From: Thermoflexia bacterium
GTDB lineage: Bacteria > Chloroflexota > Anaerolineae > B4-G1
Direction: 5' to 3'
NCBI GenBank assembly: GCA_011192155.1
Contig: DUEK01000004.1
Location: 1 to 64,000 of the forward strand
DNA length: 64,000 nucleotides
Every line of letters starts with the position of its first letter. The first letter of the stretch is position 1. Made by a program: the position numbers and the translations under genes. Below are positions 7,770 to 63,028 of the stretch, piece by piece. The notes beneath the pieces were generated by a model, which was given only the letters and a program-made list of their open reading frames with translations, searched no databases and was not told where the DNA came from.

Positions 7770-8933
7770 TTAGTCTCCCCGCCGCAAGAGACGCAACGCC
7801 GCCTCGGCCAGGATGGCGGCCCCGATGGGGAGGCAGCGCTCGTCAACGTCAAAGCGCGGATTGTGGTGTTTGCGCTCGTCCCCTTCGATGCGGCAGCCCA
7901 GCATGAACATTGCGCCCGGTGCAAGATCGGTAAACACGCCAAAATCCTCGGCCCCCATCTCTGGCTTGTTAGGCCGGACGTGTTTCTCTCCGTCCAACAG
8001 TTCGACGGCCACGTCGCGGATGAGGTCCACCACCTCCGCATCGTTGAGCAGGGGCATATCGCCAAGCTCAATGTGGAGCGTATAGTCGCCGCCGAGCGTC
8101 TGGGCCATCTTCAATGCCCGCTCGATCTCGGCGTGAATCTGTTCCCGCACCTCCAACTCCATAAAGCGGATCGTGCCGGACATTTTGACGCTCTCCGGGA
8201 TCACGTTCTCCGCTTGCCCGCCGTGGATAGAACCGATGCTGACCACCGCAGGGGCGGCCGGATGCAGGCGGCGGGAGACGATGCCATGCAGCGCCAAGAT
8301 AACGTGCCCTGCGATATAGATCGGGTCCACCACCTCGTGAGGCATCGCCCCGTGCCCCCCCTGACCGATGACAGTCGCGTAAAAGGTATCCACCCCGGCC
8401 GAGACCGGGCCAGCGCCGACGATAATATCGCCGACGGGCAGCGCGGCGTCCACGTGCAACGCCAATACTGCATCCACGTCCTCCATCGCGTCATCCTCCA
8501 CCATGCGGGGCGCGCCGCTGATTCCCTCGTCGTCCCCCACCTCCTCGGCCGGTTGGAAGAGAAAGCGCACCGTGCCGGGGAATTGCTCCTCTGACAGCAG
8601 CGTCGCCACGCCCAGCGCGATGGCGACGTGGCAATCGTGGCCGCAGGCGTGCATCACGCCTGGGACCTGCGAGGCATAATCCACGTCGTTAGTCTCTTGG
8701 ATGGGGAGCGCGTCCATGTCGGCGCGGATAGCGATGATGGGATGCCCCTCTCCCCGTTCCGCCGCCACACCGGTGCGTCCCACGCCGGTGCGGACCCGGT
8801 AGCCTAAGGGCGTCAATATCTCCGCCACGCGGGCGGAAGTGCGCGTTTCTTGAAATCCCAGCTCGGGGTGCGCGTGGAACTCGCGCCGCCAGACGGTTAG
8901 TTGTTCTTTGATTTTTTGGGCGTGTTGCAACAT
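7770..8933 (-). CDS. M20D-family amidohydrolase (N-acyl-amino acid / hippurate hydrolase-like)
   Basis: HACGHDCH metal-binding motif, dimerisation insert, 388 aa from MLQHAQKIKEQ... The ORF-track N-terminal extension is not supported by homology. Confidence 0.8.
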   Translation of the reverse strand: MLQHAQKIKEQLTVWRREFHAHPELGFQETRTSARVAEILTPLGYRVRTGVGRTGVAAERGEGHPIIAIRADMDALPIQETNDVDYASQVPGVMHACGHDCHVAIALGVATLLSEEQFPGTVRFLFQPAEEVGDDEGISGAPRMVEDDAMEDVDAVLALHVDAALPVGDIIVGAGPVSAGVDTFYATVIGQGGHGAMPHEVVDPIYIAGHVILALHGIVSRRLHPAAPAVVSIGSIHGGQAENVIPESVKMSGTIRFMELEVREQIHAEIERALKMAQTLGGDYTLHIELGDMPLLNDAEVVDLIRDVAVELLDGEKHVRPNKPEMGAEDFGVFTDLAPGAMFMLGCRIEGDERKHHNPRFDVDERCLPIGAAILAEAALRLLRRGD

Positions 8934-8955: not shown

Positions 8956-8990
8956 AGAAACCGGGTTTTTCTGAAAAAACCCGGTTTCTG
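8956..8990. repeat. REP-like hairpin, family A (AGAAACCGGGTTTTT-CTG-AAAAACCCGGTTTCT)
   Basis: Perfect 15-bp inverted repeat between the thioredoxin-reductase-like stop and the M20 start. Same loop consensus as the copies at 29037 and 48322. Confidence 0.6.
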
Positions 8991-8993
8991 CAC

Positions 8994-9896
8994 CTAACGC
9001 ATCAGCAGATAATGGCAGGCCGAGATAGCCGATTTGGCTCCCTCGCCGATGTGCACCAGCACTTGTTCAGACACGTGAGTCACGTCGCCGGCAGCGAACA
9101 CTCCCGGCCAGTTGGTGGCGCAGTAGGAGTCTACGATGATGTGCCCGCGACTGTCGCAATTCACCCACTCCCGCACCAGCCCCGAGTTAGGAGTACGCGC
9201 CAATTTGACGAATACCCCTTTGACCGGTATCTCGCGCACCTCGCCGTCAGGCATCGCCGCCACGATGTACTCTACAGACGCATCACCGCCCACCTCCTGC
9301 ACCCTCGCATCCTTGATAACTTGTACATTCTCCATCTGGTCGAGTTTGCTGACCAACGGGGTCGTTACCAGCGGTTCGTAGGCCAGTAGATAGACCCGAT
9401 GCGCCTTGTGGGCCAGGCTCGCCACGGCCCACTGGGCGCGCCGTCCCTGCCCGACCACGGCTACATCTTTGCCCAGGAACAAACCGGCGTGGGTATCCAC
9501 CGAATAACTCAATCCCCTGCCGGCCAGGCGCTTTTCGCCCAGGACGTCCAGACGTTGCGGCTTGGCGCCGGTCGCTATAACGAGGGATCGTCCCTCGTAG
9601 TGGTGACCTTGCACGGTTTCCAAGACAAAGTGGTCTTCTACAGGCGTCACCTCGGTCACAGTGTCAAAATCGCGCACAAAGTCCAAATAGTCGAGTTGGC
9701 GACGGAAAGCGTCCAGCAATGTCTCGCCGGTGATGGTCTCCCGGCCCTCCATGTCCTCCACCTGCATGGCGTAGGTGGTCTGGCCGCCCCACTGCGCGGC
9801 GATGATCAGCGTCTCCAGGCGTTGGTTGATGGCTGTCGCGGCGGCAGTGATGCCTGCCGGCCCGCCGCCGATGATGATTAGATCATACATTGTCAT
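8994..9896 (-). CDS. thioredoxin-reductase-like FAD/NAD(P) oxidoreductase lacking the redox CxxC
   Basis: GxGxxG (IIGGGPAG), C-terminal GDV FAD motif. The position of the CATC/CAVC disulfide reads GLSYSVDTHAG. Start at MTMYD with RBS GAGGAGG. Confidence 0.7.
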   Translation of the reverse strand: MTMYDLIIIGGGPAGITAAATAINQRLETLIIAAQWGGQTTYAMQVEDMEGRETITGETLLDAFRRQLDYLDFVRDFDTVTEVTPVEDHFVLETVQGHHYEGRSLVIATGAKPQRLDVLGEKRLAGRGLSYSVDTHAGLFLGKDVAVVGQGRRAQWAVASLAHKAHRVYLLAYEPLVTTPLVSKLDQMENVQVIKDARVQEVGGDASVEYIVAAMPDGEVREIPVKGVFVKLARTPNSGLVREWVNCDSRGHIIVDSYCATNWPGVFAAGDVTHVSEQVLVHIGEGAKSAISACHYLLMR

Positions 9897-11698: not shown

Positions 11699-11954
11699 CA
11701 CGGACAAACACGGGGCTGTGCACACGAATTTCTATTGAGATCAGCAGCTTGTCGGAGTGAAATCGTATCTTCTCAATATTCCGGGATGATTATACCGTAG
11801 CCGCGATTTCTATATCGCGCCAGCCCCGTGAGGTATGGAAACCTTGGCTGCATTGCCCCGACTTTCGCCGGATTTGACAATCCGGCGAGAGCACACTTTG
11901 TGTGACAAGTCTCTCCGATAGACTGCTAGTCCGTGAAATTCGTGTTTGTCCGTG
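11699..11954. repeat. about 256-bp inverted-repeat-bounded element (MITE-like candidate) in 666-bp intergenic region
   Basis: 14-bp inverted repeats CACGGACAAACACG at 11699..11712 and 11941..11954, with adjacent partial inverted CACGAATTTC extension. Internal palindromes, including a fragment matching the 121-bp MITE core (GTAGCCGCGATTTCTATATCGCG at 11797..11819). Confidence 0.35.
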
Positions 11955-15352: not shown

Positions 15353-15391
15353 TTCGAGACCCTAAAGGTCTTGAACCTTTAGGGTCTCGAA
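15353..15391. repeat. REP-like hairpin, family B (CGAGACCCTAAAGGT-CTTGA-ACCTTTAGGGTCTCG)
   Basis: Perfect 17-bp inverted repeat between the substrate-binding-protein stop and the livH start. Intercistronic stabiliser/attenuator candidate. Confidence 0.55.
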
Positions 15392-17261: not shown

Positions 17262-17405
17262 TTCCCTCCCTCGCCGGACAATCACAACAGCACAGGCAAA
17301 TGATAGCAAAAATCAGGCGGTCTGTCATCGTTCTTACACGCTGACCTGGCAAGAAAAAAGACCGATCTTTCGACCGGTCTTTGTGGTACTTTTGGGCAAG
17401 GGTTT

Positions 17406-29036: not shown

Positions 29037-29083
29037 AGAAACCAGGTTTTTCTGTAAGCGAAGCGGCAAAAACCTGGTTTCTC
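29037..29083. repeat. REP-like hairpin, family A (AGAAACCAGGTTTTT-17 nt loop-AAAAACCTGGTTTCT)
   Basis: 15-bp perfect inverted repeat. Overlaps the aldolase stop codon and sits upstream of the dehydrogenase RBS. Confidence 0.6.
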
Positions 29084-29084
29084 T

Positions 29085-29879
29085 CTACTTGAGGTACTCC
29101 AGCGCCGCGTCCACACTCGCATCCTCGTGGATAATGGCCGCGATAGCGGCCGTCATCTTGTCCGGCTCGGGATAGCGCCAGATGTTCCGACCGACCGCGA
29201 CGCCGCTGGCGCCGGCCTGCATCGACTCGTGAATCGAGTTCAGCAGATCGCGGGGGGCCTTGGACCTGCCGCCGCCCAACACGACGAGGGGCACGTACAC
29301 CTGTTCACAGATAGCGCGGAAACTCTCCACGTCGCCGCTGTAGGTGGTCTTGATGAAATCCACACCAAGTTCAGCGCCGATGCGGCAGGCGTGGCCGATA
29401 TTCTCCGGCGTCCACATTTCGGTCGGGTTCTCGAACCCACCGGGCAGCATCTCGGCCATCACGGGTACGTTCCACTCGGCGCATTGAGAGATCAAATCAG
29501 ATAGGTATGGCAGCGTCACCGACTCGTACACTGAGCCTGGCATACCCATACAACAGACAGCGTCGGCTCCAACCCGTAGCGCATCGTAGACGTCGTATAT
29601 CAACTGCATCGGCCCGCGCTCCTGGGCCAACAACGAACCGCCGCCATCGACGCGCAGGAGGATGCCCATAGCGCCGATCTCTTTGGCAAACCGCGTGACG
29701 ACGCCATAGGTCGTCAGCATACCGTCCGCGCCGCCGGCTCGAATCTTGCGGATGACCTGGCCCGGTCTCTCCAACCCTTCCATCATACCAAACACAGCCG
29801 GATGGTCCATCGCGACGATCAGCGTCTTGCCGTCCTCGCGAAAGATGTGGTTCCAACGATGGGTTTTGAGTCCGATCAT
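29085..29879 (-). CDS. class I (DhnA/archaeal-type) aldolase family protein
   Basis: 264 aa with Schiff-base lysine context DFIKTTYSG and (beta/alpha)8 pattern. Confidence 0.7.
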   Translation of the reverse strand: MIGLKTHRWNHIFREDGKTLIVAMDHPAVFGMMEGLERPGQVIRKIRAGGADGMLTTYGVVTRFAKEIGAMGILLRVDGGGSLLAQERGPMQLIYDVYDALRVGADAVCCMGMPGSVYESVTLPYLSDLISQCAEWNVPVMAEMLPGGFENPTEMWTPENIGHACRIGAELGVDFIKTTYSGDVESFRAICEQVYVPLVVLGGGRSKAPRDLLNSIHESMQAGASGVAVGRNIWRYPEPDKMTAAIAAIIHEDASVDAALEYLK

Positions 29880-29914: not shown

Positions 29915-29950
29915 GTGAAACGTGAAACTTGATCGCGTTTCACGTTTCAC
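29915..29950. repeat. perfect palindrome GTGAAACGTGAAAC-N8-GTTTCACGTTTCAC (family C)
   Basis: 14-bp arms, between PTS gene stop and aldolase start. Built from the same GTGAAACG/GTCAAACG heptamer-like units found at 55611..55698 and 56204..56237. Confidence 0.55.
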
Positions 29951-31763: not shown

Positions 31764-31916
31764 TTGCGACTGGAGTCTGGCAAATTTTCAGAATGCCCAC
31801 ATCTTGGGGTAGGCAACAATAAAGGCGCTAGATATGGGGGTTCGTAGTAGCGGCTTTAGCCGCTTTTGAGCCTTTTGGACGGCTGAAGCCGTCACTACGA
31901 ACAAAAACGCCAGACT
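31764..31916 (-). promoter_or_regulatory. about 150-nt structured 5' leader of the PTS gene (nested inverted repeats)
   Basis: Outer inverted repeat GACTGGAGTCTGGC (31764..31777) / GCCAGACTCCAGTC (31903..31916), the former abutting the RBS. Inner imperfect inverted pair TTCGTAGTAGCGGCTTTAGC / GCTGAAGCCGTCACTACGAA. Confidence 0.35.
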
Positions 31917-32009: not shown

Positions 32010-33575
32010 ATGGTAATGAAACGATTGCAGCATTGGTCGCTTTTGGCTAGGGTGTGCGCGTTGTGCGTCATTGCCGCCTGCGCGCGCCCCGCGCCTGAAC
32101 AAGAGCTTGAAGTTGTCGAGCAACCGGACTCTTCCACGTCACTTTCCCCTGTGCCTACGCCTACGGTAGTTCTTTCCCCCGCCTACCCCGGCGCATACAC
32201 GGGCACGCCCACGCCCAATCCACCGCCTGCCGGCAATCCCAACGGCGAGGGTGTGGAATCATACGTCGTGCAGCCGGGTGAGACGTTGAGCCTGATCGCG
32301 GCTGTGTTTGGCTGCACCGTCGAGGAGATCGCCGCTGCCAGTGGTTTATCCGATGCGAACAGCATCGGCGCCGGTCAGGCGCTCTACATCCCCACCGCCG
32401 CCACCGAGACCGGTCCATACCTCAAGCTGATTCCCGATAGTGAACTGGTCTATGGCCCGGCCTACATCTACTTTGACCTGGCGGGTTTTGTGGCCGAACA
32501 GGATGGCTACCTGGCGGGCTACAGCGAGCAGGTCGAGGGCCGCACTCTCAGCGGCGCAGAGATCGTGCAGCTCGTCTCTCAGCGCTTTAGCGTGGGGCCG
32601 AGGGTGTTGCTGACGCTGCTGGAGCTGCGCTCTGGATGGGTCACGCAGCCCCAGCCGGCCGAAGAGACACTCACCTTCCCGCTGGGCTATGTCCAATCGT
32701 ACCACGAAGGACTGTTCCAGCAGCTAAGTTGGGCGGCGGTGCGGCTCAACGAGGGATACTATGGCTGGAAGCAGGGCGACCGCGCGACGGCGCGCGTGCG
32801 CACAATGCGCGTGAGCAACGGAATCCGCGCCTCGTTCGCGCCGGGGCTTAATCCGGGCAGCGCCGGCGTGCAGAACTGTCTGGCCGAACTCTCCGCCACT
32901 TGGGACGAATGGCTGACGCTGATCGGCCGCGATGGTTTTGCGGCTACCTACGAGCGGTTTTTCGGCAATCCCTTCGCTTATGCGGTGGAACCGTTGCTGC
33001 CGCCCGATTTGGCGCAGCCAGAGTTGCATTTGCCGTGGGAGGCCGGGTATACGTGGTATTTCACCGGCGGCCCGCACGGAGGCTGGGGAAACGGCAGTGG
33101 CCGCGCCGCGCTCGACTTTGTACCGGGTGACAAGATACCGGATTGCACACTCTCGAAAGAGTGGGTGGTTGCCGCCGCGCCGGGGCTGGTCTTGCGCAGC
33201 AATTATGGGGAGGTGCTCGTGGACCTGGACAGTGATGGTTTTGAGCAGAGCGGCTGGGTGTTGCTCTATATGCACGTCAATGCCCATGACCGTGTGGCAG
33301 TGGGCGCGGCGCTACAGCGCGGCCAGCGCATCGGGCATCCTTCCTGCGAGGGCGGCTACGCCGAAGCGACGCACCTCCACTTTGCCCGCCGCTACAATGG
33401 CGAGTGGATCCCCGCCGGCAGCGGCCTGGCACCGATGGTGCTTTCTGGCTGGACGGCCCACGAGGACGTGATGCCCTACGACGGCGCGGTGACGCGCGGC
33501 GACGAGGTGCGCGAGGCCTGCGAGTGTTGGAACGAGGAAATCAACGGCCTGGTTTCAGATAACGCCAGACCTTGA
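32010..33575 (+). CDS. LysM + M23-family metalloendopeptidase lipoprotein
   Basis: Lipobox VIAAC, Pro/Thr-rich linker, LysM (YVVQPGETLSLIAAVFG...), C-terminal M23 motifs (HGGWGNG...D, HLHFA). Confidence 0.8.
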   Translation: MVMKRLQHWSLLARVCALCVIAACARPAPEQELEVVEQPDSSTSLSPVPTPTVVLSPAYPGAYTGTPTPNPPPAGNPNGEGVESYVVQPGETLSLIAAVFGCTVEEIAAASGLSDANSIGAGQALYIPTAATETGPYLKLIPDSELVYGPAYIYFDLAGFVAEQDGYLAGYSEQVEGRTLSGAEIVQLVSQRFSVGPRVLLTLLELRSGWVTQPQPAEETLTFPLGYVQSYHEGLFQQLSWAAVRLNEGYYGWKQGDRATARVRTMRVSNGIRASFAPGLNPGSAGVQNCLAELSATWDEWLTLIGRDGFAATYERFFGNPFAYAVEPLLPPDLAQPELHLPWEAGYTWYFTGGPHGGWGNGSGRAALDFVPGDKIPDCTLSKEWVVAAAPGLVLRSNYGEVLVDLDSDGFEQSGWVLLYMHVNAHDRVAVGAALQRGQRIGHPSCEGGYAEATHLHFARRYNGEWIPAGSGLAPMVLSGWTAHEDVMPYDGAVTRGDEVREACECWNEEINGLVSDNARP

Positions 33576-33599
33576 AGGTTTCAGAAAACCCTCAAGGTC
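33568..33599. repeat. REP-like hairpin, family B (GACCTTGAAGGTTT-CAGA-AAACCCTCAAGGTC)
   Basis: Overlaps the stop of the + strand M23 gene and lies 0-18 nt from the stop of the convergent minus-strand gene. Bidirectional terminator-like. Confidence 0.55.
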
Positions 33600-34918
33600 T
33601 TTATCCGCGAGACAAAGTCGGCCAGAGAAAATTCGTAGCGGTCGGCAAAGTTGTCGGTAGGCAGGGATAGGGTGAGGGTCAGGTCTTGCAGGTCGTAGAC
33701 GATGGTCCATTGCGTGGAGGTGTGAACCGCGGCCATCACTTCCATCATTTCCTCGGTATCTATCTGTCCGTCTCCATCTTCCAGCGCGCCGACGGCGGTC
33801 TGGTAGCGTGGGCAATCGGGTTGGTCGGCGGGGCCGGCCCAATGGCTGTTGGTCATCACCTGATAGGCGGTATCCGCGCGGCTGACCACCACTCCCTCGG
33901 CCAGGAATTCTACGACGGCGGATGCGCCGCTGCGATCGGCCAGCAGGACGTGGGTGCCGAACTGAGGGCTGAAGGCAAAAGGAATTTCCTGTAGCAAACT
34001 GATCGCTTCTTCTACATCGGCGCAAGTTTCCAAAAGGATGTGATAGACTTGCAGGTCTATCAGCGCCGGATGCGTACCGGTCGGATAGCCGGCCGCGTCT
34101 ACTGCGGCGACGCCGAGCGCCAGTCCCTGGTCATTCATTCCATCAAAAGCGGTAAAGTTGGGCGCGCCGACGGTCATGACGACGTTGGGGTAGGCGTCCT
34201 CTGGGTAGGCAAAGACGAGCGTTGTTTGGGGCATACTGCTGTTCCAATCGTTGTTGCGACCCAGACGGGCGTGGCCGTCGGCCGTCATCTCTGGCCGGGC
34301 AAAGGCAACGCTGCAAAAGGGGTTATACACCACGCCCGGCAGCAAAAAGCTCCACCAATCATCCCAGACCGGGATGCCCTCGCTCACGTCATCCAGGTTC
34401 AGGTCGTAAGCGGCATAGATACCGCGCATTTGTTCGACTGTACCTGTATGAACCTCTGTGTACAAGTCGAGCATCGCGTGGGCGGTTTCTTGTTCGTCGG
34501 CGGTGAGCGGGCGGGGGGAGAATCGCTGCTCCTGGTACCATTCGCCAAAGGCTTGGCCGATTTCCTCATAGGTTCCAGCCACCTCGATTTTCTCCAGCGG
34601 ATAGCTCGAGACGATTTTCTCGGTCGTCCAGTAAGCGCCAGCGATGGGGGTGGGAGTAGGTTCTGGCGTGGGAGTGGCGGTGGGGATCTCGGTGGGCGTC
34701 GGTGTGGGCACGTTTGTCGATGTGGGGAGCACTGTGGCGAGGGCGGCATGGGTTGCTGGAGGAAAGGGGTTAAAGGGCAGGCGCGGGTTGATGGCAATGG
34801 TGAGGTAACAGCAACTCAAGGCAGCGGTGGCGACAAGGGTGAGGATGGTGAGGATGTTGGGGAGCGAGGGCTTACCTTGTTCTTGCTGAGAGAGGGTCTC
34901 TTTTAATTTGGATAACAT
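33581..34918 (-). CDS. secreted Ntn-hydrolase-like protein (C45 / choloylglycine-hydrolase-like fold, tentative)
   Basis: 445 aa. Signal/TM, Pro/Thr-rich linker. NPFCSVAFA putative self-processing Cys and GRNNDW motif. Confidence 0.4.
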   Translation of the reverse strand: MLSKLKETLSQQEQGKPSLPNILTILTLVATAALSCCYLTIAINPRLPFNPFPPATHAALATVLPTSTNVPTPTPTEIPTATPTPEPTPTPIAGAYWTTEKIVSSYPLEKIEVAGTYEEIGQAFGEWYQEQRFSPRPLTADEQETAHAMLDLYTEVHTGTVEQMRGIYAAYDLNLDDVSEGIPVWDDWWSFLLPGVVYNPFCSVAFARPEMTADGHARLGRNNDWNSSMPQTTLVFAYPEDAYPNVVMTVGAPNFTAFDGMNDQGLALGVAAVDAAGYPTGTHPALIDLQVYHILLETCADVEEAISLLQEIPFAFSPQFGTHVLLADRSGASAVVEFLAEGVVVSRADTAYQVMTNSHWAGPADQPDCPRYQTAVGALEDGDGQIDTEEMMEVMAAVHTSTQWTIVYDLQDLTLTLSLPTDNFADRYEFSLADFVSRIKTLRVF

Positions 34919-44459: not shown

Positions 44460-44778
44460 AATTTTTCCTCCCATGGCGTCCAAATGACGTTCAAGAGTGT
44501 GCTTTACTACCGGACATTTTTTCAGATGTGTCAAAAACAGTTACACAGAGAAGGCACAGAGATTCACTGAGACATTGAAAATTAGACAAAGCGCTGTTCC
44601 ATACTCAGCAGATCCAAATTTCAGACCTCGGAGGTCTCGGAAGGTGACATTGGCAGTAAAATTGCTTAGATTGCGCCCGTAAATTCTCCGTGAATCTCTG
44701 TAATCATACACTTGGCAAAAGTGTCTGGTGGCAAAGAGTGTACCACGAAGTAGTATGCCGTCAAGCTAATCTTGTTGG

Positions 44779-44821
44779 ACAAAAACAAAGCCGGCGAGAC
44801 CTATGCGGCCTCCCCGGCTTT
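44779..44821 (-). terminator. rho-independent terminator of the sigma/anti-sigma operon
   Basis: On minus strand, stem AAAGCCGGGGAGG...CCGGCTTT followed by GTTTTTGT. Preceded by a second perfect hairpin GGGCAAATTGCCAATTTGCCC at 44826..44846. Confidence 0.5.
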
Positions 44822-44848
44822 TCAAGCGGGGCAAATTGGCAATTTGCC

Positions 44849-45901
44849 CTACGTGTTGATGTTGGGAGTTTCGGGCGATTCGACCGGCGGTGGCACCGGC
44901 GCGGGCGGCGTGTGAGCTATGGCGCCAAAGCGAGTTAGCGCCACAGCGCCCAGTCCCAGGCAGCCCAGGACGAGGGTCAAGAGTACCCCCAACACACCCA
45001 GGCAAGGGAGCACGCCTAGCCCGGTCGTCACTAGCGTGATGAGCAATGTTCCCAGTCCGGCGGCCCACAGCGGCGCGACCGCGCGGACATTGAGCGCCTG
45101 CATCAGCCGCTGGCCCACCAGAGCGCCAACGCCGATCCAGCCGAACAGCCCGGCCACGCCCAGGGCAAGCGCGACCAGCATCGCGATTGGCGAGAGACAG
45201 ATCGTGACCAGCAATGCAATGGCGAGCGCCACGGCTGCAAAAGCGGTCAGCAACCCTATCCCCAAGCTGGCCCCCGGCGACTCGACCACAGTCCGCCCGA
45301 CCCGCATTACCTGCTGCGGCCAGATCAGCGCCGCCAACCCGGCCACCGCAGAGATCACCAGCACCGAGGCCACACCTCGTATCACATTGAGCGCCCAGGT
45401 AACGGCCTGTCCTGCGCCAGAGATCGAAAAAGTAGGTGGAGAGGGAAGTACGGGGACAGGGATGCCGTACCAGTGTTCAGAGGGGAATTCGCCCAAAGGG
45501 ACGCCCTCAATGATTCCTCCATCCACCTGCGCTCCATCCTCTTGATCGAGGTCGCAGTTCCAACTGCATACTACGTTTCCGCCCACTTGTGCGCTATCGC
45601 CCAGGTAGATGTCACCGCCAGAGACGACCAGTTCTCCCTTAATGTCGCCCTGCGCCTCAACATTGCCGTTCCAGACAATGACAGAGCCGGCGACGCGGCT
45701 GCCGGGTTTCAGAGTCACGTCACCATCAAAGACGACCAGGTCGCCGTCCAGCCGCTCATCCTCTTCCAATGCATAGTCCTCGCCCCAGATAGTGATGCCG
45801 CCGTCGCCGGGCGGGCTGCCATCCGCTAGCGCTGGCGCGATTGGAAAGTACAACCCCAATGCCAGTAGTGCGATCAACCACATGATCCATCGTTTATACA
45901 T
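44849..45901 (-). CDS. membrane protein with bactofilin-like (DUF583 beta-helix) N-terminal domain and multi-TM C-terminal domain
   Basis: Repeats GDVTLKPGSRVAGSVIVWNGNVEAQGDIKGELVVSGGDIYLGDSAQVGGNVV, then Ala/Leu/Gly-rich TM region. RBS GGAGGAAAAT. Confidence 0.5.
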   Translation of the reverse strand: MYKRWIMWLIALLALGLYFPIAPALADGSPPGDGGITIWGEDYALEEDERLDGDLVVFDGDVTLKPGSRVAGSVIVWNGNVEAQGDIKGELVVSGGDIYLGDSAQVGGNVVCSWNCDLDQEDGAQVDGGIIEGVPLGEFPSEHWYGIPVPVLPSPPTFSISGAGQAVTWALNVIRGVASVLVISAVAGLAALIWPQQVMRVGRTVVESPGASLGIGLLTAFAAVALAIALLVTICLSPIAMLVALALGVAGLFGWIGVGALVGQRLMQALNVRAVAPLWAAGLGTLLITLVTTGLGVLPCLGVLGVLLTLVLGCLGLGAVALTRFGAIAHTPPAPVPPPVESPETPNINT

Positions 45902-45915
45902 AATTTTCCTCCATA

Positions 45916-45947
45916 GACCTTGAGGGTTTCAGAAAACTCTCAAGGTC
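45916..45947. repeat. REP-like hairpin, family B (GACCTTGAGGGTTT-CAGA-AAACTCTCAAGGTC)
   Basis: Intercistronic, between the DUF4097-like stop and the bactofilin-like RBS. 30/32 identical to the copy at 33568. Confidence 0.55.
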
Positions 45948-45948
45948 T

Positions 45949-46836
45949 TTAATCAGAGATTTCTATCAGATGCAGCGTGCCTACGCCTGTTGTAACCTCG
46001 ATGCGCAGTTCTACCTCCGCTTCGCCAAAGGCGGCGTTGACGTAGGTATCACCATCGCGCTCCAGGCCCGACGCATTCACGTTAGAGAGTCCTCCCTCCA
46101 CGTCAACCTGCACGCCCACGTCGTCAGGCAGCCGCAAGGTGAGAGCGCCGACGCCGGCCGTGACGCGCACGTCGGCCGAGCGAGACCAATCTCCGGTCAG
46201 GTCCAAGTCGATGTTGCCCACGCCGCCCTGCACCTTTATCATCTCTGGGCTGGCATTGCCGATTCCGACCACTTCCAATCTCGAGGCTCCGGCATCCAGT
46301 GTGAGATCGCCCATCTCGGCCCCGTTCGGCTCACCGAATTGCACCGAGAAATCGCCTGCGCCCAGGTCCAGGTCTAGTTTCACGAGTTGCAAGCCTGTAA
46401 GGTCCAGGTTGCCCTTGCCCGCGCCGACTTGGAGGTTCACATCGAGCGGTATTTCGGGCGAGAATTCCAACTCCCACTCATTGCGAGTGTTTCCGGTGGG
46501 AAAGCCCCACTCTTCGTCGGCGCCGCCCTGCTCAATGGTTAGTACGTGGGCCGCATAGGTCACTTCCGGCTCCCATTGTTCGACGTTGTAGCGAAAGTGC
46601 CCAGAGAAGAGTTGATCGGAAGCACCGGCCTCGATCTCTAGATCTCCCGCGCCAAAAGCAAGCTCTACGGCAACCGGCTCGTCATCCTCGAGGGGGATCG
46701 CCTCCCGTTTGTCCTGCATCTCGCCGACTTGGATTGTTGGCACTTTGATGTCTGGTACCTGCGGCGGCTCATCGCACGCAATTTGGCTGCCCAGCAACAA
46801 GAGCAGCGCCAGTATGATTGTGATATACTTTTTCAT
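45949..46836 (-). CDS. lipoprotein with DUF4097/toast-rack-like beta-repeat domain (LiaG-like putative adhesin)
   Basis: Lipobox GSQIAC. Repeated G-x-G-x-L/D beta-strands (VGAGKGNLDLTGLQLVKLDLDLGAGDFSV...). Confidence 0.5.
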   Translation of the reverse strand: MKKYITIILALLLLLGSQIACDEPPQVPDIKVPTIQVGEMQDKREAIPLEDDEPVAVELAFGAGDLEIEAGASDQLFSGHFRYNVEQWEPEVTYAAHVLTIEQGGADEEWGFPTGNTRNEWELEFSPEIPLDVNLQVGAGKGNLDLTGLQLVKLDLDLGAGDFSVQFGEPNGAEMGDLTLDAGASRLEVVGIGNASPEMIKVQGGVGNIDLDLTGDWSRSADVRVTAGVGALTLRLPDDVGVQVDVEGGLSNVNASGLERDGDTYVNAAFGEAEVELRIEVTTGVGTLHLIEISD

Positions 46837-46858: not shown

Positions 46859-47506
46859 TCAAATTTGTTTGATTTGAGAATCTAGCATCGCGTTGCGCGC
46901 GCGGCGCACTGCGCCTATCCATAGGCCGTTCAACGTCAACGTCATTGCCAGCCCACACAGACCCAGGAAGGCCAAGGGGACGGCGACGGTTTCCATCAAG
47001 ACCAGCAGCGCGCGCCCCACTGATCCCAGGAAAGCGAGCAACTGCACGATGGTCGTCGGGCCGCCGCTGACGAGGGCCGGCAGGATGCCGGCTATATTCG
47101 AAAAATCCGCAAAAATGGGGGCCGGCAGGATGCCGGCTATATTCGAAAAATCCGCAAAAATGGGGGCCGGCAGGATGCCAGTCGCGTCCAAAAAGCCCAC
47201 AAAGATGGGAGCCAGCGCCAGCAGCGCCAGCGACACCGTCCCCAGGGTCAGCGTCGCGCCGCCGACGACCGCGCGACGGGCCTGATCTCGGCGAGCCAGG
47301 CGCGTCATCACCTGTACGCGCACGCGGAGCGGGGGTTGCACCATCGGCGCGGCGGAGAACAGGGTATCAAGTGCCTGCAGGCTCTGCCACCCGGCCTGAC
47401 ACGCGCCGCACGCGGTCAGGTGTTCGTCCAGGAGCGCGCTATCTGCGTCATTGAGACGACCATCCAGCCGCTCGGACATCATTTGACCAGCCTGTTTACA
47501 TCGCAT
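46859..47506 (-). CDS. anti-sigma factor, zf-HC2 type, single-pass membrane, with internal tandem 15-aa repeat
   Basis: HLTACGACQ zinc motif, TM segment. GILPAPIFADFSNIA repeated (45-bp DNA tandem repeat 47077..47181). Overlaps the ECF sigma gene by 11 bp. Confidence 0.7.
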   Translation of the reverse strand: MRCKQAGQMMSERLDGRLNDADSALLDEHLTACGACQAGWQSLQALDTLFSAAPMVQPPLRVRVQVMTRLARRDQARRAVVGGATLTLGTVSLALLALAPIFVGFLDATGILPAPIFADFSNIAGILPAPIFADFSNIAGILPALVSGGPTTIVQLLAFLGSVGRALLVLMETVAVPLAFLGLCGLAMTLTLNGLWIGAVRRARNAMLDSQIKQI

Positions 47507-48080: not shown

Positions 48081-48321
48081 ACGTGTGCTCCCACCCCGGC
48101 CCGAATACTTCCAGGCAGTCTATATACGCACCAATCTTGGCAGGGTTGCAGGTTATTTTCGTTGTTTAGAGTGGGTTTGTCAAGTTTGAGTTGTCTGGTG
48201 ATTACCCACAAATATGCAGATGTCAGGTGATCGTTTTTTCACCACAGAGGCACAGAGGACACTGAGCCTATATTTCGCATCCTGGCGCAGCCTATTTGTG
48301 TCTTTTTCAAAAAGCGGGGAA

Positions 48322-48356
48322 AGAAACCAGGTTTTTCAGAAAAAAACCTGGTTTCT
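48322..48356. repeat. REP-like hairpin, family A (AGAAACCAGGTTTTT-CAGAA-AAAAACCTGGTTTCT)
   Basis: 15-bp perfect arms. Located in the 750-bp divergent intergenic region, not at a gene end. Confidence 0.6.
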
Positions 48357-48553
48357 CACTGGCCCAGACGGCGAATCTGCCCAAGTTGGGTTTGGAAGAA
48401 CAAAGTGTCAAGCCCCAAATCAAGCTGTCCAGAGGTGCGGAAAATAGGCTGAGACAGGGTATTTTTGTGTTTTCTTTCTCTACCGTACACTTTGTGATCA
48501 CGAATAACACAAATGAACAAATGACACGAATCTGTGTTGAAATGAATAAAAAA

Positions 48554-48674
48554 CAGCAACTCCCGTTATGGGGGAAAAGTCAGGTCGTAACCGCGATTTC
48601 GCAATCGCGCAGGGCGCTTTACGCGGAAAAACAGACGCGATTTGGAAATCGCGGCTACAAAACGGGAATTGCTG
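48554..48674 (+). mobile_element. 121-bp MITE-like element, copy 1
   Basis: CAGCAACTCCCGTT...AACGGGAATTGCTG terminal inverted repeats. Internal nested palindromes. About 95% identical, in inverted orientation, to 62908..63028. Confidence 0.6.
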
Positions 48675-48831
48675 AGCTGTGGTGAGATGTGGGTAATCAC
48701 CAGTGAGATGTGCTTTGGTGCAACACGCCTACACTTTGGGTTTTCATTCAGGTGTGATAAAATAGCGACCTCACAATGGGAACAATACACAGCTTGAGCA
48801 ACAGAGCAATTTCCGGTGGGCGAGGTGCTTT

Positions 48832-53847: not shown

Positions 53848-55614
53848 ATGACCCTAAACCTGGATGCAATCGGCAAGAAAATCGGTCCCATCACTACCGA
53901 GTACAATTGGAAGGACATCGTCCTCTACGCGCTGGGCGTGGGGGCCGGCTTTGACGAGTTGGAATACGTCTACGAAGACCGGCTAAAGGCGATCCCGTCT
54001 TTTGCCGCCACCGCCCTTTACGATTTTCTGGGTGAGTTTGTGGCTATCACGGGCGTCAACCTGGCAGGCATCCTTCATGGGGAGCACGATCTGATTTTCC
54101 ACAATCCCATTCCCCCAGAGGGCGGTGCGCTCACCAGTGAGGCGCGTATCACCAATATCTACGACAAGGGCGAGGGCAAGGGCGCGCTGGTGATCGGCCA
54201 GGTGAATACTTACCACGAGGATGGGCAAAAGCTGTTCACCAACGTCGCCACCCTGTTTTCCCGGCTGGATGGCGGCTTTGGCGGCGAGAACGCGCCCCGG
54301 ACGACGTTCGAGTTCCCAGACCGGGAACCGGATTTCGAGGAACTAGCGCAGCCCTCAGCCGACCAGCCTCTGACCTACCGGCTTTCGGGCGACACCTTTG
54401 CTTTGCACGTTGACCCCGACTTTGCTCAGATGAGCGGCTTTGAGCGACCCATCATGCATGGCCTGTGTACCCACGGCTACGCCTGCCGCGCCGTCATCAA
54501 ACATCTGTTCCCCGGTGAGCCGGAGCGGATGACGCACTTTCGCAATCGCTTTTCCAAGGCGCTCTATCCGGGTACGCCGATCAAGACCCAGATATGGCAA
54601 GTCGAGGAAGGAAAAGCTCTTTTCAGAACCATCAACGTCGAGACGGGCAAGGCGGTACTCGATCGGGGCGTGGTCGAGTGGATGAGCCGGGGGGAGGCGG
54701 AGAAGCGAGGTAAGGGCGGCATTCGATTTGACAGCCAGGTAGCCATCGTCACCGGCGCTGGCGGCGGCCTGGGCCGCGTCTATGCGCTGGAATTGGCGAA
54801 ACGGGGCGCCAAGGTAGTGGTCAACGACCTGGGCGGCGCGCGCGATGGCACGGGTAAAGGCTCCGCCCGCCCCGCCGACGCGGTTGTGCAGGAGATTCAG
54901 GAGGCTGGCGGCGAGGCGGTCGCTAACTATGACTCGGTCGCCACGCGGGAGGGGGGCGAGGCAATCGTCCAGACCGCGCTGGATAGCTTTGGCAAGGTGG
55001 ACATCCTCATCAACAACGCCGGCATCCTGCGCGATAAATCCTTCGCCAAGATGACGCCGGAGCAATGGGACGGTGTGCTGGCGGTACATCTGCAAGGGGC
55101 CTACAACGTCACCGCTCCGGCTTTCCGCGCCATGCGGGAGAACGGCTATGGGCGCGTGGTGATGACCACCTCGGCGGCGGGGCTGTTCGGCAACTTTGGG
55201 CAGGCCAATTACAGCGCGGCCAAGATGGGACTGGTGGGAATGATGAACACACTCAAGCTGGAGGGAGCCAAGCACAACATCAAAGTCAACACCATCGCGC
55301 CCCTGGCCGCTACCCGGCTGACGGAGGACGTCATGCCGCCCGATATGCTGAAAAAGCTCAAGCCGGAAATGGTCGCGCCGCTGGCGCTCTATCTCTGCGC
55401 GGAGCAGTGCGCCGAGAGCGGTCTGGTCGTGAACGCCGGCGGCGGGTTCTTTAGCCGAGCGGCGGTGGCCTCTGCGCCCGTCGTGCAGGTTGGTGACGGG
55501 CAGCAAGCGCCCACGGTGGAAGAGATTCACCGTCACTGGGCCGAAATTGACAGCCTGGAAAGCAGCCGGCAGTATCAAGATGCCAATGCAATGTTGATGG
55601 ATATGCTGGCGTGA
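53848..55614 (+). CDS. bifunctional MaoC-like (R)-hydratase (double hot-dog) :: SDR 3-hydroxyacyl-CoA dehydrogenase fusion
   Basis: N-terminal hot-dog pair, C-terminal SDR (VAIVTGAGGGLGRVYAL, NNAG, YSAAKMGL). Start at MTLNLD with RBS AAGGAGGAAACACC. Domain order is the reverse of eukaryotic MFE-2. Confidence 0.8.
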   Translation: MTLNLDAIGKKIGPITTEYNWKDIVLYALGVGAGFDELEYVYEDRLKAIPSFAATALYDFLGEFVAITGVNLAGILHGEHDLIFHNPIPPEGGALTSEARITNIYDKGEGKGALVIGQVNTYHEDGQKLFTNVATLFSRLDGGFGGENAPRTTFEFPDREPDFEELAQPSADQPLTYRLSGDTFALHVDPDFAQMSGFERPIMHGLCTHGYACRAVIKHLFPGEPERMTHFRNRFSKALYPGTPIKTQIWQVEEGKALFRTINVETGKAVLDRGVVEWMSRGEAEKRGKGGIRFDSQVAIVTGAGGGLGRVYALELAKRGAKVVVNDLGGARDGTGKGSARPADAVVQEIQEAGGEAVANYDSVATREGGEAIVQTALDSFGKVDILINNAGILRDKSFAKMTPEQWDGVLAVHLQGAYNVTAPAFRAMRENGYGRVVMTTSAAGLFGNFGQANYSAAKMGLVGMMNTLKLEGAKHNIKVNTIAPLAATRLTEDVMPPDMLKKLKPEMVAPLALYLCAEQCAESGLVVNAGGGFFSRAAVASAPVVQVGDGQQAPTVEEIHRHWAEIDSLESSRQYQDANAMLMDMLA

Positions 55615-55698
55615 AACATCAAACGTCAAGCGTCAAACGTGAAACGTGAAACGTCAAACGTCAAGCGTCAAACGTGAAACGTCAAATGGGAAACGTGA
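55611..55698. repeat. tandem array of GTCAAACG/GTGAAACG heptamer-based units (about 2 x 30 bp)
   Basis: Sequence gtgaaacatcaaacgtcaagcgtcaaacgtgaaacgtgaaacgtcaaacgtcaagcgtcaaacgtgaaacgtcaaatgg. Starts at the stop codon of the MaoC-SDR gene. Confidence 0.6.
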
Positions 55699-57838: not shown

Positions 57839-58792
57839 ATGACAAAGTTTATTTCGTTACTCTTTTGTGTGGCTTTCCTAGCCTTTACCATCACTGCCTG
57901 TGGGCCAGATCAAACTCCCACCGAGCCCCCTCCAACAGTTCCTGCGGAGCCGGGGGAGACGCTCGTTGAAACTAGTGCACCACCTACCCCAGAACCAACC
58001 ACCGAAGCGCCGCCGCCCACCGCAGCGCCGGTCTTGGAACCGCTGCCGCCCGAACCACAAGAGATCGAGTTCCAGGCCGCGGACGGTCAGGCTTTGCTGG
58101 GCGTATACTATCCGGCGGCGGTCAACCCCGCGCCGATGGTCGTGCTGCACCATTGGGCCCCCGGAGATCAACGCGACTGGATCGAGATCGCCTACTGGCT
58201 GCAAAATCGCGGCCTGGGAGGTCAGACCGATCCGGCGGCTCCCTGGCTCGACTCATCCTGGTTCCCGCCAATTCCGCCCGAGTGGGAGGAGCAGTCGTTT
58301 GGGGTCTTTACCTTTACCTTCCGCGGTTGCGAGGGCGGCTGCAGCTCGTTTGAGCCGGATGGATGGCTACAGGATGCGCAGGCGGCTATGGAGACGGCGC
58401 GAGGGCTCGAGGGCGTGAACCCGCAGCGGATCGTCGCCGTCGGGGCCAGCATCGGAGCCGACGGCGGTCCCGACGGATGCTTCTGGCTCAACCAACAGTA
58501 CGAAAACAGTTGCTTGGGAGGGTTCTCGTTCTCTCCAGGCAGCTACCTGAAAGTGCCCTACGCCGACGCCGTGGACGCTCTGGGCGCAGAGCAGCCGCCC
58601 AAACCGGGCTGGTGCCTATTCGCGGTCGAGGACACGGCAGCAGCCGAGGCCTGCCAATCGGCTACAGGCGATCACTACCGGGTTGTTCAGTACGAGGGGC
58701 AAATGCACGGTATGGACTTGATTAACCCCGATGTAGAACCGAACGCATTGCTCTTGCTGCTCGAGTTCATCGCGTTGAGTATGGGGCTTTGA
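57839..58792 (+). CDS. lipoprotein, alpha/beta-hydrolase-like (dienelactone hydrolase-like)
   Basis: Lipobox ITAC, Pro/Thr/Glu linker, GxSxG (VGASIGADG). Confidence 0.5.
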   Translation: MTKFISLLFCVAFLAFTITACGPDQTPTEPPPTVPAEPGETLVETSAPPTPEPTTEAPPPTAAPVLEPLPPEPQEIEFQAADGQALLGVYYPAAVNPAPMVVLHHWAPGDQRDWIEIAYWLQNRGLGGQTDPAAPWLDSSWFPPIPPEWEEQSFGVFTFTFRGCEGGCSSFEPDGWLQDAQAAMETARGLEGVNPQRIVAVGASIGADGGPDGCFWLNQQYENSCLGGFSFSPGSYLKVPYADAVDALGAEQPPKPGWCLFAVEDTAAAEACQSATGDHYRVVQYEGQMHGMDLINPDVEPNALLLLLEFIALSMGL

Positions 58793-58804: not shown

Positions 58805-58840
58805 AAACCCTTAGGGTCTTTGAGGAGACCCTAAGGGTTT
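58805..58840. repeat. REP-like hairpin, family B (AAACCCTTAGGGTCT-TTGAGG-AGACCCTAAGGGTTT)
   Basis: Perfect 15-bp arms between the lipoprotein stop and the fadD RBS (GGAGGAAC). Confidence 0.55.
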
Positions 58841-62907: not shown

Positions 62908-63028
62908 CAGCAATTCCCGTTTTGTAGCCGCGATTTCCAAATCGCGTCTGTTTTTCCGCGTAAAGCGCCCTGCGCGATTGCGAAATCGCGGCTACGACCT
63001 GACTTTTCCCCCATAACAGGAATTGCTG
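62908..63028 (-). mobile_element. 121-bp MITE-like element, copy 2, with 9-bp target-site duplication
   Basis: Terminal inverted repeats CAGCAATTCCCGTT / AACAGGAATTGCTG. Flanked by direct repeats TCTTGGCTG at 62899..62907 and 63029..63037. Inverted relative to copy 1. Confidence 0.7.

Follow-up and report, generated by a model that had tools for sequence, protein, structure and literature searches.

Intergenic hairpins of an uncultured Chloroflexota bacterium are copies of a dispersed, untagged palindromic repeat with covarying stems

What are the short, nearly perfect hairpins that recur between the genes of a Thermoflexia bacterium (Chloroflexota; Anaerolineae): independent transcription terminators, or copies of one repeated element? 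The question arises from a 64,000-nt stretch of contig DUEK01000004.1 (assembly GCA_011192155.1), hereafter the window, for which an original prediction made from the letters alone had described two families of intergenic hairpins, A and B. We find that they are not ordinary or independent terminators, but copies of a dispersed palindromic element: a repeat family with a strong bias to the 3' side of genes and covarying stem pairs, kept at some junctions and at others inserted in one lineage only or swapped for an unrelated hairpin. Families A and B are a real feature and a new untagged variant within the known class of stem-loop repeats resembling repetitive extragenic palindromes (REPs), and we think it probable that the copies act as intercistronic or 3'-end RNA hairpins.

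The window holds seven hairpins (A1 to A3 and B1 to B4) and two solo arms, every one of them intergenic, with stop and start positions taken from open reading frame (ORF) calls and gene assignments from Pfam. All sites of the original prediction exist, within 1 nt of where it had placed them, and its degenerate arm is the lone arm at 2272-2286. Five perfect hairpins of at least 15 bp occur in the window versus none in 30 first-order Markov shuffles, AAACCNGGTTT occurs six times versus 0.04 expected, and the pattern A[GA]ACC-N5-GGT[CT]T eight times versus 0.13 expected. Predicted RNA folding energies lie between -20 and -30 kcal/mol (z-scores between -3.7 and -9.4). Family A has perfect 15-bp stems, AGAAACCNGGTTTTT/AAAAACCNGGTTTCT, with loops of 4, 16 and 5 nt in A1, A2 and A3; in family B, B1 has a perfect 17-bp stem, B4 a perfect 15-bp stem, and B2 and B3 have 15-bp stems with one mismatch each. 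Stems are thus perfect in five of the seven copies, and each of the other two carries one recent transition. The elements measure 33-46 nt including a loop of 3-16 nt and are relatively A+T-rich (34-47% G+C versus 60% for the genome). Both families share a stem base, (A)GA(A/G)ACC...GGT(T/C)TC(T), GGTTT/AAACC at the stem top and, as far as this genome is concerned, CTG/CAG at the core of the loop. A further symmetry had been overlooked: each arm is itself a 7+1+7 palindrome (AGAAACC-N-GGTTT(C/T)T, AGACCTT-G-AAGGT(C/T)T or AGACCCT-A-AGGGT(C/T)T), so the two arms of a hairpin are direct as well as inverted repeats of each other. Arm motifs occur in the window only in the hairpins and the two solo units, in at least three different sequences and at roughly one per 4 kb. 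The features are as follows.

A1, 8956-8989, family A, minus-strand junction: AGAAACCGGGTTTTT-CTGA-AAAAACCCGGTTTCT, predicted fold -23.8 kcal/mol, z -4.9; 4 nt past a thioredoxin-reductase-like (TrxR) stop (8994-8996) and 22 nt from an M20 peptidase ATG at 8933, placed by orthologues.
A2, 29037-29082, family A, minus-strand junction: 16-nt loop CTGTAAGCGAAGCGGC; 2 nt past a DeoC-type aldolase stop (29085-29087) and 24 nt from a Zn-alcohol-dehydrogenase (ADH) ATG (29012).
A3, 48322-48356, family A: loop CAGAA, predicted fold -25 to -26 kcal/mol whichever strand is read; in the 944 nt that separate an extracytoplasmic function (ECF) sigma gene (minus) from the divergent ThiS/MatE (plus), at no gene end.
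A3 tail, 48297-48321, minus strand: 25 nt accompanying hairpin A3, TTCCCCGCTTTTTGAAAAAGACACA as read on the minus strand.
B1, 15353-15391, family B, minus-strand junction: TTCGAGACCCTAAAGGT-CTTGA-ACCTTTAGGGTCTCGAA, predicted fold -29.7 kcal/mol, z -9.4; 16 nt past a branched-chain amino-acid binding-protein stop (15408) and 21 nt from a livH-type permease ATG (15331).
B2, 33567-33600, family B: one mismatch, A.C on the plus strand and G.U on the minus; between a convergent LysM/M23 peptidase gene (plus) and a C45-type acyltransferase gene (minus), both of whose stops lie inside the hairpin (33573-33575, 33581-33583).
B3, 45915-45948, family B, minus-strand junction: a single mismatch that reads A.C in the sense RNA but G.U in the antisense; abuts a toast-rack/LiaF-like stop (45949-45951), 13 nt from a bactofilin-like ATG (45901).
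B4, 58805-58840, family B, plus-strand junction: AAACCCTTAGGGTCT-TTGAGG-AGACCCTAAGGGTTT, predicted fold -27.8 kcal/mol, z -5.0; 12 nt past the stop of an unassigned ORF (58790-58792) and 24 nt from an AMP-binding enzyme ATG (58865).
Solo family-B arm, 2272-2286: AGACCCTAAGGGTTT without a partner arm, between a Band7/SPFH gene and the next minus-strand gene.
Solo 7+1+7 unit, 44623-44637: AGACCTCGGAGGTCT, newly found, in the spacer downstream of the bactofilin-like gene.

Six of the seven hairpins begin 0-16 nt past a stop codon, as had been claimed for most copies, and five of these six lie between same-strand cistrons, 13-24 nt upstream of the next start and with a Shine-Dalgarno sequence in between. 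Only the copy at 33567 is between convergent genes, and the one in a divergent spacer, 48322, is indeed at no gene end, as had been noted. The genes beside the hairpins have no common function. Around the first solo arm the predicted fold is not significant (z -1.1); the AGACC-N5-GGTCT type of the second occurs twice in the window versus 0.07 expected. Rfam 15 gave no gathering-score match anywhere in the window, and scans at E < 1 gave only chance-level matches (E = 0.19-0.27, 21 bits) around A3 and one cyanobacterial copy. Full-text literature searches with the stem, loop, family-A core and co-occurring REP sequences matched only unrelated primers and microRNAs.

The family extends far beyond the window. 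We scanned one genome per species for family A with an exact pattern of 28 specified bases that leaves two centre bases free; counts outside the window concern this family, and family B was examined in the window and in sampled loci (L numbers). This search, which had been proposed as a check, found the exact hairpin in at least 132 copies in at least 115 genome loci, with up to about 26 loci per genome among the matches listed. By record title, and again among the matches listed, the carriers are Chloroflexota (54-71% G+C; Anaerolineae, Promineifilaceae, Ardenticatenaceae, Thermoflexales), filamentous cyanobacteria (35-53% G+C, with HIP1 sites in the flanks; isolates include Microseira wollei, Calothrix parasitica, Limnoraphis, Argonema and Aerosakkonema), KSB3 (Candidatus Vecturithrix, UASB270) and planctomycetes (three contigs). 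Since only 2 of 2.9 million viral contigs were positive, phage carriage is not the main habitat. A plasmid BLAST with the 33-mer found no match, a test weakened by a low-complexity filter that probably masks the A and T runs.

Copies elsewhere repeat the genomic preference seen in the window. Among 135 family-A copies (sampled loci plus window), 57 lie between same-strand, 29 between convergent and 7 between divergent genes (chi-square p = 5e-4), the others being unclassifiable, as they fall within a called ORF or at the edge of a locus. The upstream stop is a median of 36 nt away and the downstream start 93 nt, and the hairpin is nearer the stop in 38 cases versus 17 (p = 0.006), a conservative estimate of the 3'-end bias because crude gene calls over-extend start codons. 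Subtypes are lineage-specific: the centre pair is mostly C:G with 3-nt loops (TGA, TGG) in cyanobacteria, and mostly A:T with 4-nt loops (CGGA/TCCG, TCTG/CAGA) in Chloroflexota. Cyanobacterial copies also occur in tandem, inside a GTTCGTAGTAATCGCTTTAGCG REP, and at the apex of an inverted repeat that is about 110 nt long and itself conserved, which is insertion-like behaviour; no target-site duplication is visible in their flanks. The longer inverted repeat, ATAGCATTCCTAAATCATTTGTGAGA...TCTCACGACTCAT.TAGGATTGCTAT, is conserved in several marine cyanobacterial genomes (L018 850-960, L024, L086 1000-1110, L094), with the family-A hairpin exactly at its apex, and has no Rfam match.

Pairing between the arms is maintained through change. 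The two family-A centre bases that the pattern leaves free are complementary in 121 of 128 copies, and all four pair types are used. We assembled a second set by seeding on the left arm only and picking the right arm by similarity to the consensus, a choice that biases against compensation. Here both partners vary in 8 of the 15 pairs, and 28 cells are changed on both sides where shuffles give 7.1; all 500 shuffles fell short on each of the five measures, and slid registers collapse. Real compensatory change exists, and reflects either selection on pairing or a palindrome-symmetrising process. The claim of compensatory stems holds for the sampled copies, and for the TrxR-M20 pairs described below, although the example offered for it does not: the copies at 33567 and 45915 differ by two independent single transitions, each of which leaves a mismatch (A.C or G.U) where a perfect common ancestor would have been paired.

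We compared four junctions with those of relatives, identified here by amino-acid identity; over one gene the source genome is about 90% identical in nucleotides to an Anaerolineales metagenome-assembled genome (MAG). The junction between the binding-protein and permease genes (B1) carries a strong hairpin in 5/5 lineages compared, of B1 type, B4 type or an unrelated GC-rich type. A 93% relative has B1 with a different loop, an 86% relative a B4-like AAAGACCCTTAGGGCCT-CGC-AGACCCTAAGGGTCTTT, and the 89% and 84% relatives unrelated GC-rich CCCCGCAGGCGC hairpins; structure is constant here while sequence turns over. At two loci without family B (L165 9878-9990, L169 9931-9970) its place is taken by a single or double GC-rich hairpin, CCCCGCAGGCGC...GCGCCTGCGGGG, which represents a further repeat family specific to a lineage and occupying this niche.

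Sequence itself persists at two further sites. At the TrxR-M20 junction (A1), the 82% and 81% relatives L172 and L173 carry family A (AGAAGCCAGGTTTTT...AAAAACCTGGCTTCT and AAACCGAGTTTT...AAAACTCGGTTT, respectively) with compensatory pairs, AGAAGCC/GGCTTCT and CCGAG/CTCGG, and a 16-nt loop that is CCATAAGCGGAGCGAC or its reverse complement, the same as the loop of A2. At the DeoC-ADH junction (A2), L174 and L176 (87% and 83%) have stems 30/30 identical to A2 around a short CTG loop, while a third lineage, L175 (86%), has heptamer repeats in place of such a hairpin. The spacer next to the identical stems is unalignable, and the genes beside them have a third-codon-position identity of 0.56-0.66; over the flanking coding DNA compared, overall identity is 79-85% and third-position identity 0.56-0.68. 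Because the stems are identical while third positions have diverged, they have been kept or homogenised at the level of sequence. Family A has been retained at these two junctions through 13-19% protein divergence, and at both fixed sites 4-nt or otherwise short loops interchange with 16-nt loops. Loops also vary freely among 128 copies elsewhere, contrary to the conserved loop of the original prediction, and since the stem is conserved while loops vary and swap, we reject the loop as a recognition site.

The toast-rack to bactofilin junction shows the opposite behaviour. Only the window's own lineage (L001-L003, L121) has B3, whereas the 89% relative L122 has an unrelated 30-nt filler and 58-69% relatives have spacers of 9-35 nt that hold no similar hairpin. 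The roughly 34 nt of B3 were therefore gained recently; comparison with the empty orthologous sites reveals no flanking direct repeat.

Other small repeats share these surroundings. A tandem array of about 12 heptamers (CGTGAAA/CGTCAAA) at 55610-55698 resembles cyanobacterial short tandemly repeated repetitive (STRR) sequences. The same heptamers in inverted order form a hairpin with a T-tract at 29915-29950, between a gene resembling phosphotransferase-system (PTS) EIID and DeoC, and heptamer hairpins with varying heptamer number stand at orthologous junctions of three relatives (L174 9066, L175 3255, L176 9072 and 4989; also L064 6239). The motif (T)AAGCG(A/G)AGCG, which contains GCGAAGC, forms the loop or flank of several unrelated palindromic repeats in Chloroflexota and cyanobacteria (window 29055-29067; L172 4780, L173 9951, L167 7223; cyanobacterial L013, L037, L109) and may be a small module of its own.

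The spacer around A3 has features of its own. Tandem Repeats Finder also reports A3 as 2 x 20 nt, and hairpin plus tail recur as two copies in another Anaerolineales MAG (L028, L072), where similarity stops at the tail; as only this 25-nt tail is shared, we rejected A3 as a piece of a larger conserved RNA. A REP doublet tagged with GTAG lies in the same spacer. In a public metagenome record (L001 7217-7606) a 129-aa gene at 48296-48685 (plus strand) spans A3 and the doublet; it has no Pfam match and is most likely spurious, created by the repeats. The upstream region of the ECF sigma gene (48100-48165; L122 1840-1900) is conserved with the 89% relative and includes an ECF-type AAC...CGT promoter-like pair, GCAACCCTGCCAAGATTGGTGCGTATAT; synteny with L122 stops just upstream of that pair, where A3 and the doublet lie. 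A perfect 45-nt x 2.4 tandem repeat (100% matches, 47074-47179), in frame and with a 15-codon unit, lies inside the neighbouring zf-HC2 anti-sigma gene (46859-47506, minus strand).

How might such an element work? On the reading that we consider probable, an untagged REP-like stem-loop repeat accumulates within a few nt downstream of stop codons; its copies might arise by inserting into DNA that forms hairpins or is palindromic, by duplication of a 15-nt palindrome in inverted orientation, or by gene conversion from copy to copy. When the upstream gene is transcribed, the element would fold as an RNA hairpin of -20 to -30 kcal/mol. RNA polymerase would mostly read through, since most copies lack a U-tract in the sense direction, and the hairpin may then block 3'-to-5' exonucleases and mark a point of processing or partial termination. 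The upstream cistron, for example an ATP-binding cassette (ABC) transporter binding protein, would thereby out-accumulate the downstream cistrons, and between convergent genes the hairpin may serve as a two-way insulator. On one reading of its outer pairs, described with the terminator scan below, family A may in addition act as a weak two-way terminator.

The strongest argument for a role in RNA is that a hairpin is always found at the binding-protein to permease junction, whatever its sequence, which parallels the REP between malE and malF. That enterobacterial REP likewise sits between the binding-protein and permease genes of an ABC operon, as B1 does here. More generally, enterobacterial REPs and bacterial interspersed mosaic elements (BIMEs; palindromic units, PU) are short palindromic multi-copy repeats outside genes, after stops or between convergent genes, for which the same role, as mRNA 3' stabiliser or partial terminator, has been proposed. 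Families A and B differ in lacking the GTAG foot, in having perfect rather than bulged stems and self-palindromic arms, and in being relatively A+T-rich; the family-A consensus also crosses phyla, whereas REP families are usually specific to a species or genus.

Several points weigh against this reading. The role in RNA is one that we infer; neither A3 nor either solo unit lies at the 3' end of a gene; and B3 cannot be essential at its junction, because close relatives lack it. Hairpins that start 0-4 nt past a stop would be melted by terminating ribosomes. A test for selection at the RNA level, counting mismatches on the sense strand of single-mismatch hairpins, gave 32 G.U versus 19 A.C, which is suggestive and not significant, and in B3 it is the sense strand that has A.C and the antisense strand G.U. 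Finally, the constancy of stem sequence across lineages and phyla and the self-palindromic arms are unexplained by a purely structural role; a partial explanation would be provided by gene conversion among copies, by insertion targeted at hairpins or by a partner specific for the sequence.

Such a partner is central to a second, more tentative reading, possible in our view although clearly the less likely of the two. Family A would then be a single 33-nt element defined by its sequence, and its 15-bp stem would be the target of recognition by, or of copying through, a factor common to Chloroflexota, filamentous cyanobacteria, KSB3 and planctomycetes: a hairpin-specific nuclease, transposase or binding protein that moved between phyla. 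The self-palindromic arms, the nesting in hairpin apices and the excess stem conservation would be its recognition signatures. If this were true, few known mobile or recognised elements that range across phyla would be as small as family A. The small dispersed repeats (SDR) of heterocystous cyanobacteria, reportedly described by Elhai et al. in 2008, are said to be 21-27 nt long and confined to one cyanobacterial subgroup; they are also said to be tiny untagged repeats that form a hairpin with compensatory changes, nest in other repeats and lie beside tandem heptamers. By description only, families A and B resemble them in being tiny, untagged, nested, near tandem heptamers and hairpins with compensatory changes, and family A differs in its 33-46 nt and its presence in at least four phyla by record title.

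Are the hairpins then true REPs, that is, single-stranded DNA substrates copied by a REP-associated tyrosine transposase (RAYT; HUH-Y1 type), with any RNA effect a by-product? We regard this as unlikely. Judged by published definitions of REPs and RAYTs (PMC3733652, PMC6006769), family A is REP-like in being a short palindrome (20-40 nt) with many extragenic copies and a bias to gene 3' ends. Its self-palindromic arms give the inverted-doublet look of a REPIN (a REP doublet forming a hairpin), and a central deletion could have turned a longer form into its short one, as the architecture of REPIN-RAYT systems and GTAG 'double-foot' REPs (PMC3116915, PMC3733652, PMC6006769) would allow. The phylum ranges are similar as well: GTAG REPs are known from cyanobacteria, Chloroflexi and the PVC (planctomycete) superphylum (PMC3733652), and RAYT classes have been reported in cyanobacteria and planctomycetes (PMC6006769). 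In cyanobacteria the hairpin is nested within other palindromic repeats, and the long-loop variant has GCGAAGC in its loop. This heptamer forms an unusually stable DNA mini-hairpin.

The tag itself is missing, however. The arms begin AGAAACC or AGACC with no GT[AG]G or CGTC foot, the flanks of 128 copies have no fixed tetranucleotide, and the stems lack the bulge or imperfection that gives REPs their polarity. A search with HUH...Y motif patterns (from PMC6006769) in six-frame translations of about 1.3 Mb (window plus sampled loci) found 0 matches, a weak test because RAYTs are usually single-copy. The window also contains separate GTAG-tagged repeats that would be natural RAYT substrates: doublets at 48587-48658 and 62924-62995, a solo at 11797-11819, and further repeats at 31840-31902 and 44829-44852. 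The suggestion of a REP/BIME-like element or an RNA module accordingly survives as a dispersed repeat family and, probably, an RNA stability or intercistronic module, while recognition by a RAYT gained no support. Families A and B belong instead to the untagged palindromic families that have been noted as existing and unexplained (PMC3733652).

The tagged repeats deserve description in their own right. The REPIN-like doublets at 48587-48658 and 62924-62995 (GTAGCCGCGATTTCCAAATCGCG, 26 nt, CGCGATTGCGAAATCGCGG(C/T)TAC) are 97% identical over 125 nt including flanks; they form a family apart from the hairpins and fit the known GTAG REP class. At 31840-31902 lies the inverted doublet GTTCGTAGTAGCGGCTTTAGCCG / CGGCTGAAGCCGTCACTACGAAC, a near-relative of which, GTTCGTAGTAATCGCTTTAGCGATT, is plentiful in cyanobacterial loci, making it a second repeat type common to the Chloroflexota window and cyanobacteria. 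A GTTCGTAGTA...CTTTAGC repeat type also fills cyanobacterial loci. The 'double-foot' REP GTAGGGCAAATTGCCAATTTGCCC at 44829-44852 provides, with its GTAG, the TAG stop of the bactofilin-like gene and is followed by a canonical A-tract/T-tract terminator (44787-44821); L122, the 89% relative, has retained this REP in altered form, and it is met again in L117.

Other known classes of repeat fit less closely. Bacterial miniature inverted-repeat transposable elements (MITEs; Correia/NEMIS, ERIC, RUP, Nezha) are likewise non-coding repeats beside genes, co-transcribed and stably folding, with presence/absence differences between relatives. MITEs, however, span 100-300 bp and have terminal inverted repeats and target-site duplications; families A and B consist of two arms around a 3-16 nt loop, without the terminal inverted repeats round an internal segment of an element that usually measures 50-500 bp, and show no target-site duplication at B3 or in cyanobacterial flanks. 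The window also lacks the mark of a DNA uptake sequence, one motif genome-wide, also inside genes, at about 1 per kb. Sites of parS, Noc or CsrA type were rejected, their half-site order or loop content not fitting.

A host benefit may be lacking altogether. The hairpins could be neutral selfish or mutational by-products, palindromes born of template switching and kept by quasi-palindrome correction or gene conversion. B3 is lineage-specific, A3 shares its spacer with a REP doublet, the swaps of long and short loops at orthologous sites suggest exchange between copies, and cyanobacterial copies are tandem and nested, all as such an origin would have it. We nevertheless judge it improbable, given the bias to the 3' side of genes and depletion between divergent genes, the hairpin that is always present between binding protein and permease despite sequence turnover, and the persistence at two junctions.

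Could the hairpins still be independent intrinsic terminators or attenuators, alike only by convergence on an A-tract, an ACC...GGT stem and a T-tract? With a terminator taken to be a stem-loop that has a U-tract (at least 5 U in 8) immediately behind it on the transcribed strand, a consensus scan called one of the seven hairpins, 15353-15391, on the plus strand and thus antisense to its minus-strand operon, and none of the other six. The earlier remark that most copies lack a T-tract was therefore correct. The same scan called genuine terminators nearby, at 17357-17382 and 29915-29950. Canonical terminators of the window and its relatives do share the AAAGACCGG...CCGGTCTTTTT design (17357-17382, L162, L165), and A2 is followed by GAUUUUG, its 16-nt loop exceeding the limits of the scan. 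If the outer AGAAA/UUUCU pairs of family A are taken for the A-tract and the U-tract, the stem shrinks to 10 bp on a CCNGG base and is followed by UUUCU, which would be the layout of a weak, symmetric bidirectional terminator. Like bidirectional intrinsic terminators, family A has an A-rich flank, a stem with a G+C base, a loop and a U-rich flank, is fully symmetric and is enriched between convergent genes. Its U-tract is merely UUUCU, however, and is paired in free RNA, and in the window the majority of copies are found within operons, shortly before a Shine-Dalgarno sequence and with no U-tract on the sense strand. Copies of families A and B share sequence by descent, as independent terminators would not: all 28 specified bases are identical in at least 132 family-A copies, and stems are identical at orthologous sites despite diverged neutral positions. 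One copy, A3, is at no gene end. Independent terminators thus seem quite improbable, in agreement with the original prediction; the motif is abundant in related genomes, its pairs covary and it is kept at orthologous junctions.

The terminator at 17357-17382, AAAGACCG...CGGTCTTT(TT), follows a GerE-type response-regulator gene; its position and design are kept in the 93% and 89% relatives (L162 8053, L165 7991), and its AGACC/GGTCT stem base is in common with family B.

Inverted pairs of uptake sequences are often found behind genes in Neisseria and Haemophilus, and the hairpins might similarly be incidental to inverted pairs of double-stranded DNA sites for a dimeric protein (nucleoid-associated or a regulator) or for uptake; solo arms, the 15-bp 7+1+7 palindrome in each arm and a stem sequence conserved beyond pairing would suit this, yet it is very unlikely, since the arms of family A, B2/B3 and B1/B4 differ and offer no single motif, lie only in intergenic DNA at their density of roughly one per 4 kb and beside genes without a common function, and since compensatory changes preserve complementarity between arms rather than the palindrome of each arm.

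The finding matters at several levels. For annotation, these hairpins are neither genes nor classical terminators, and across A3 a metagenome record calls a spurious 129-aa ORF. For operon biology, the hairpins probably mark where cistron ratios are set in uncultured Chloroflexota, most clearly between binding protein and permease. For evolution, one palindrome consensus is common to phyla whose genomes range from 35% to 70% G+C, and sequence-level conservation of the stem, which pairing alone does not explain, points to copies that evolve in concert or to a partner that recognises the sequence. If such a partner were identified, an untagged counterpart of the REP-RAYT system could be studied experimentally, and for this there are cultured carriers, including Microseira wollei NIES-4236 and Calothrix parasitica NIES-267.

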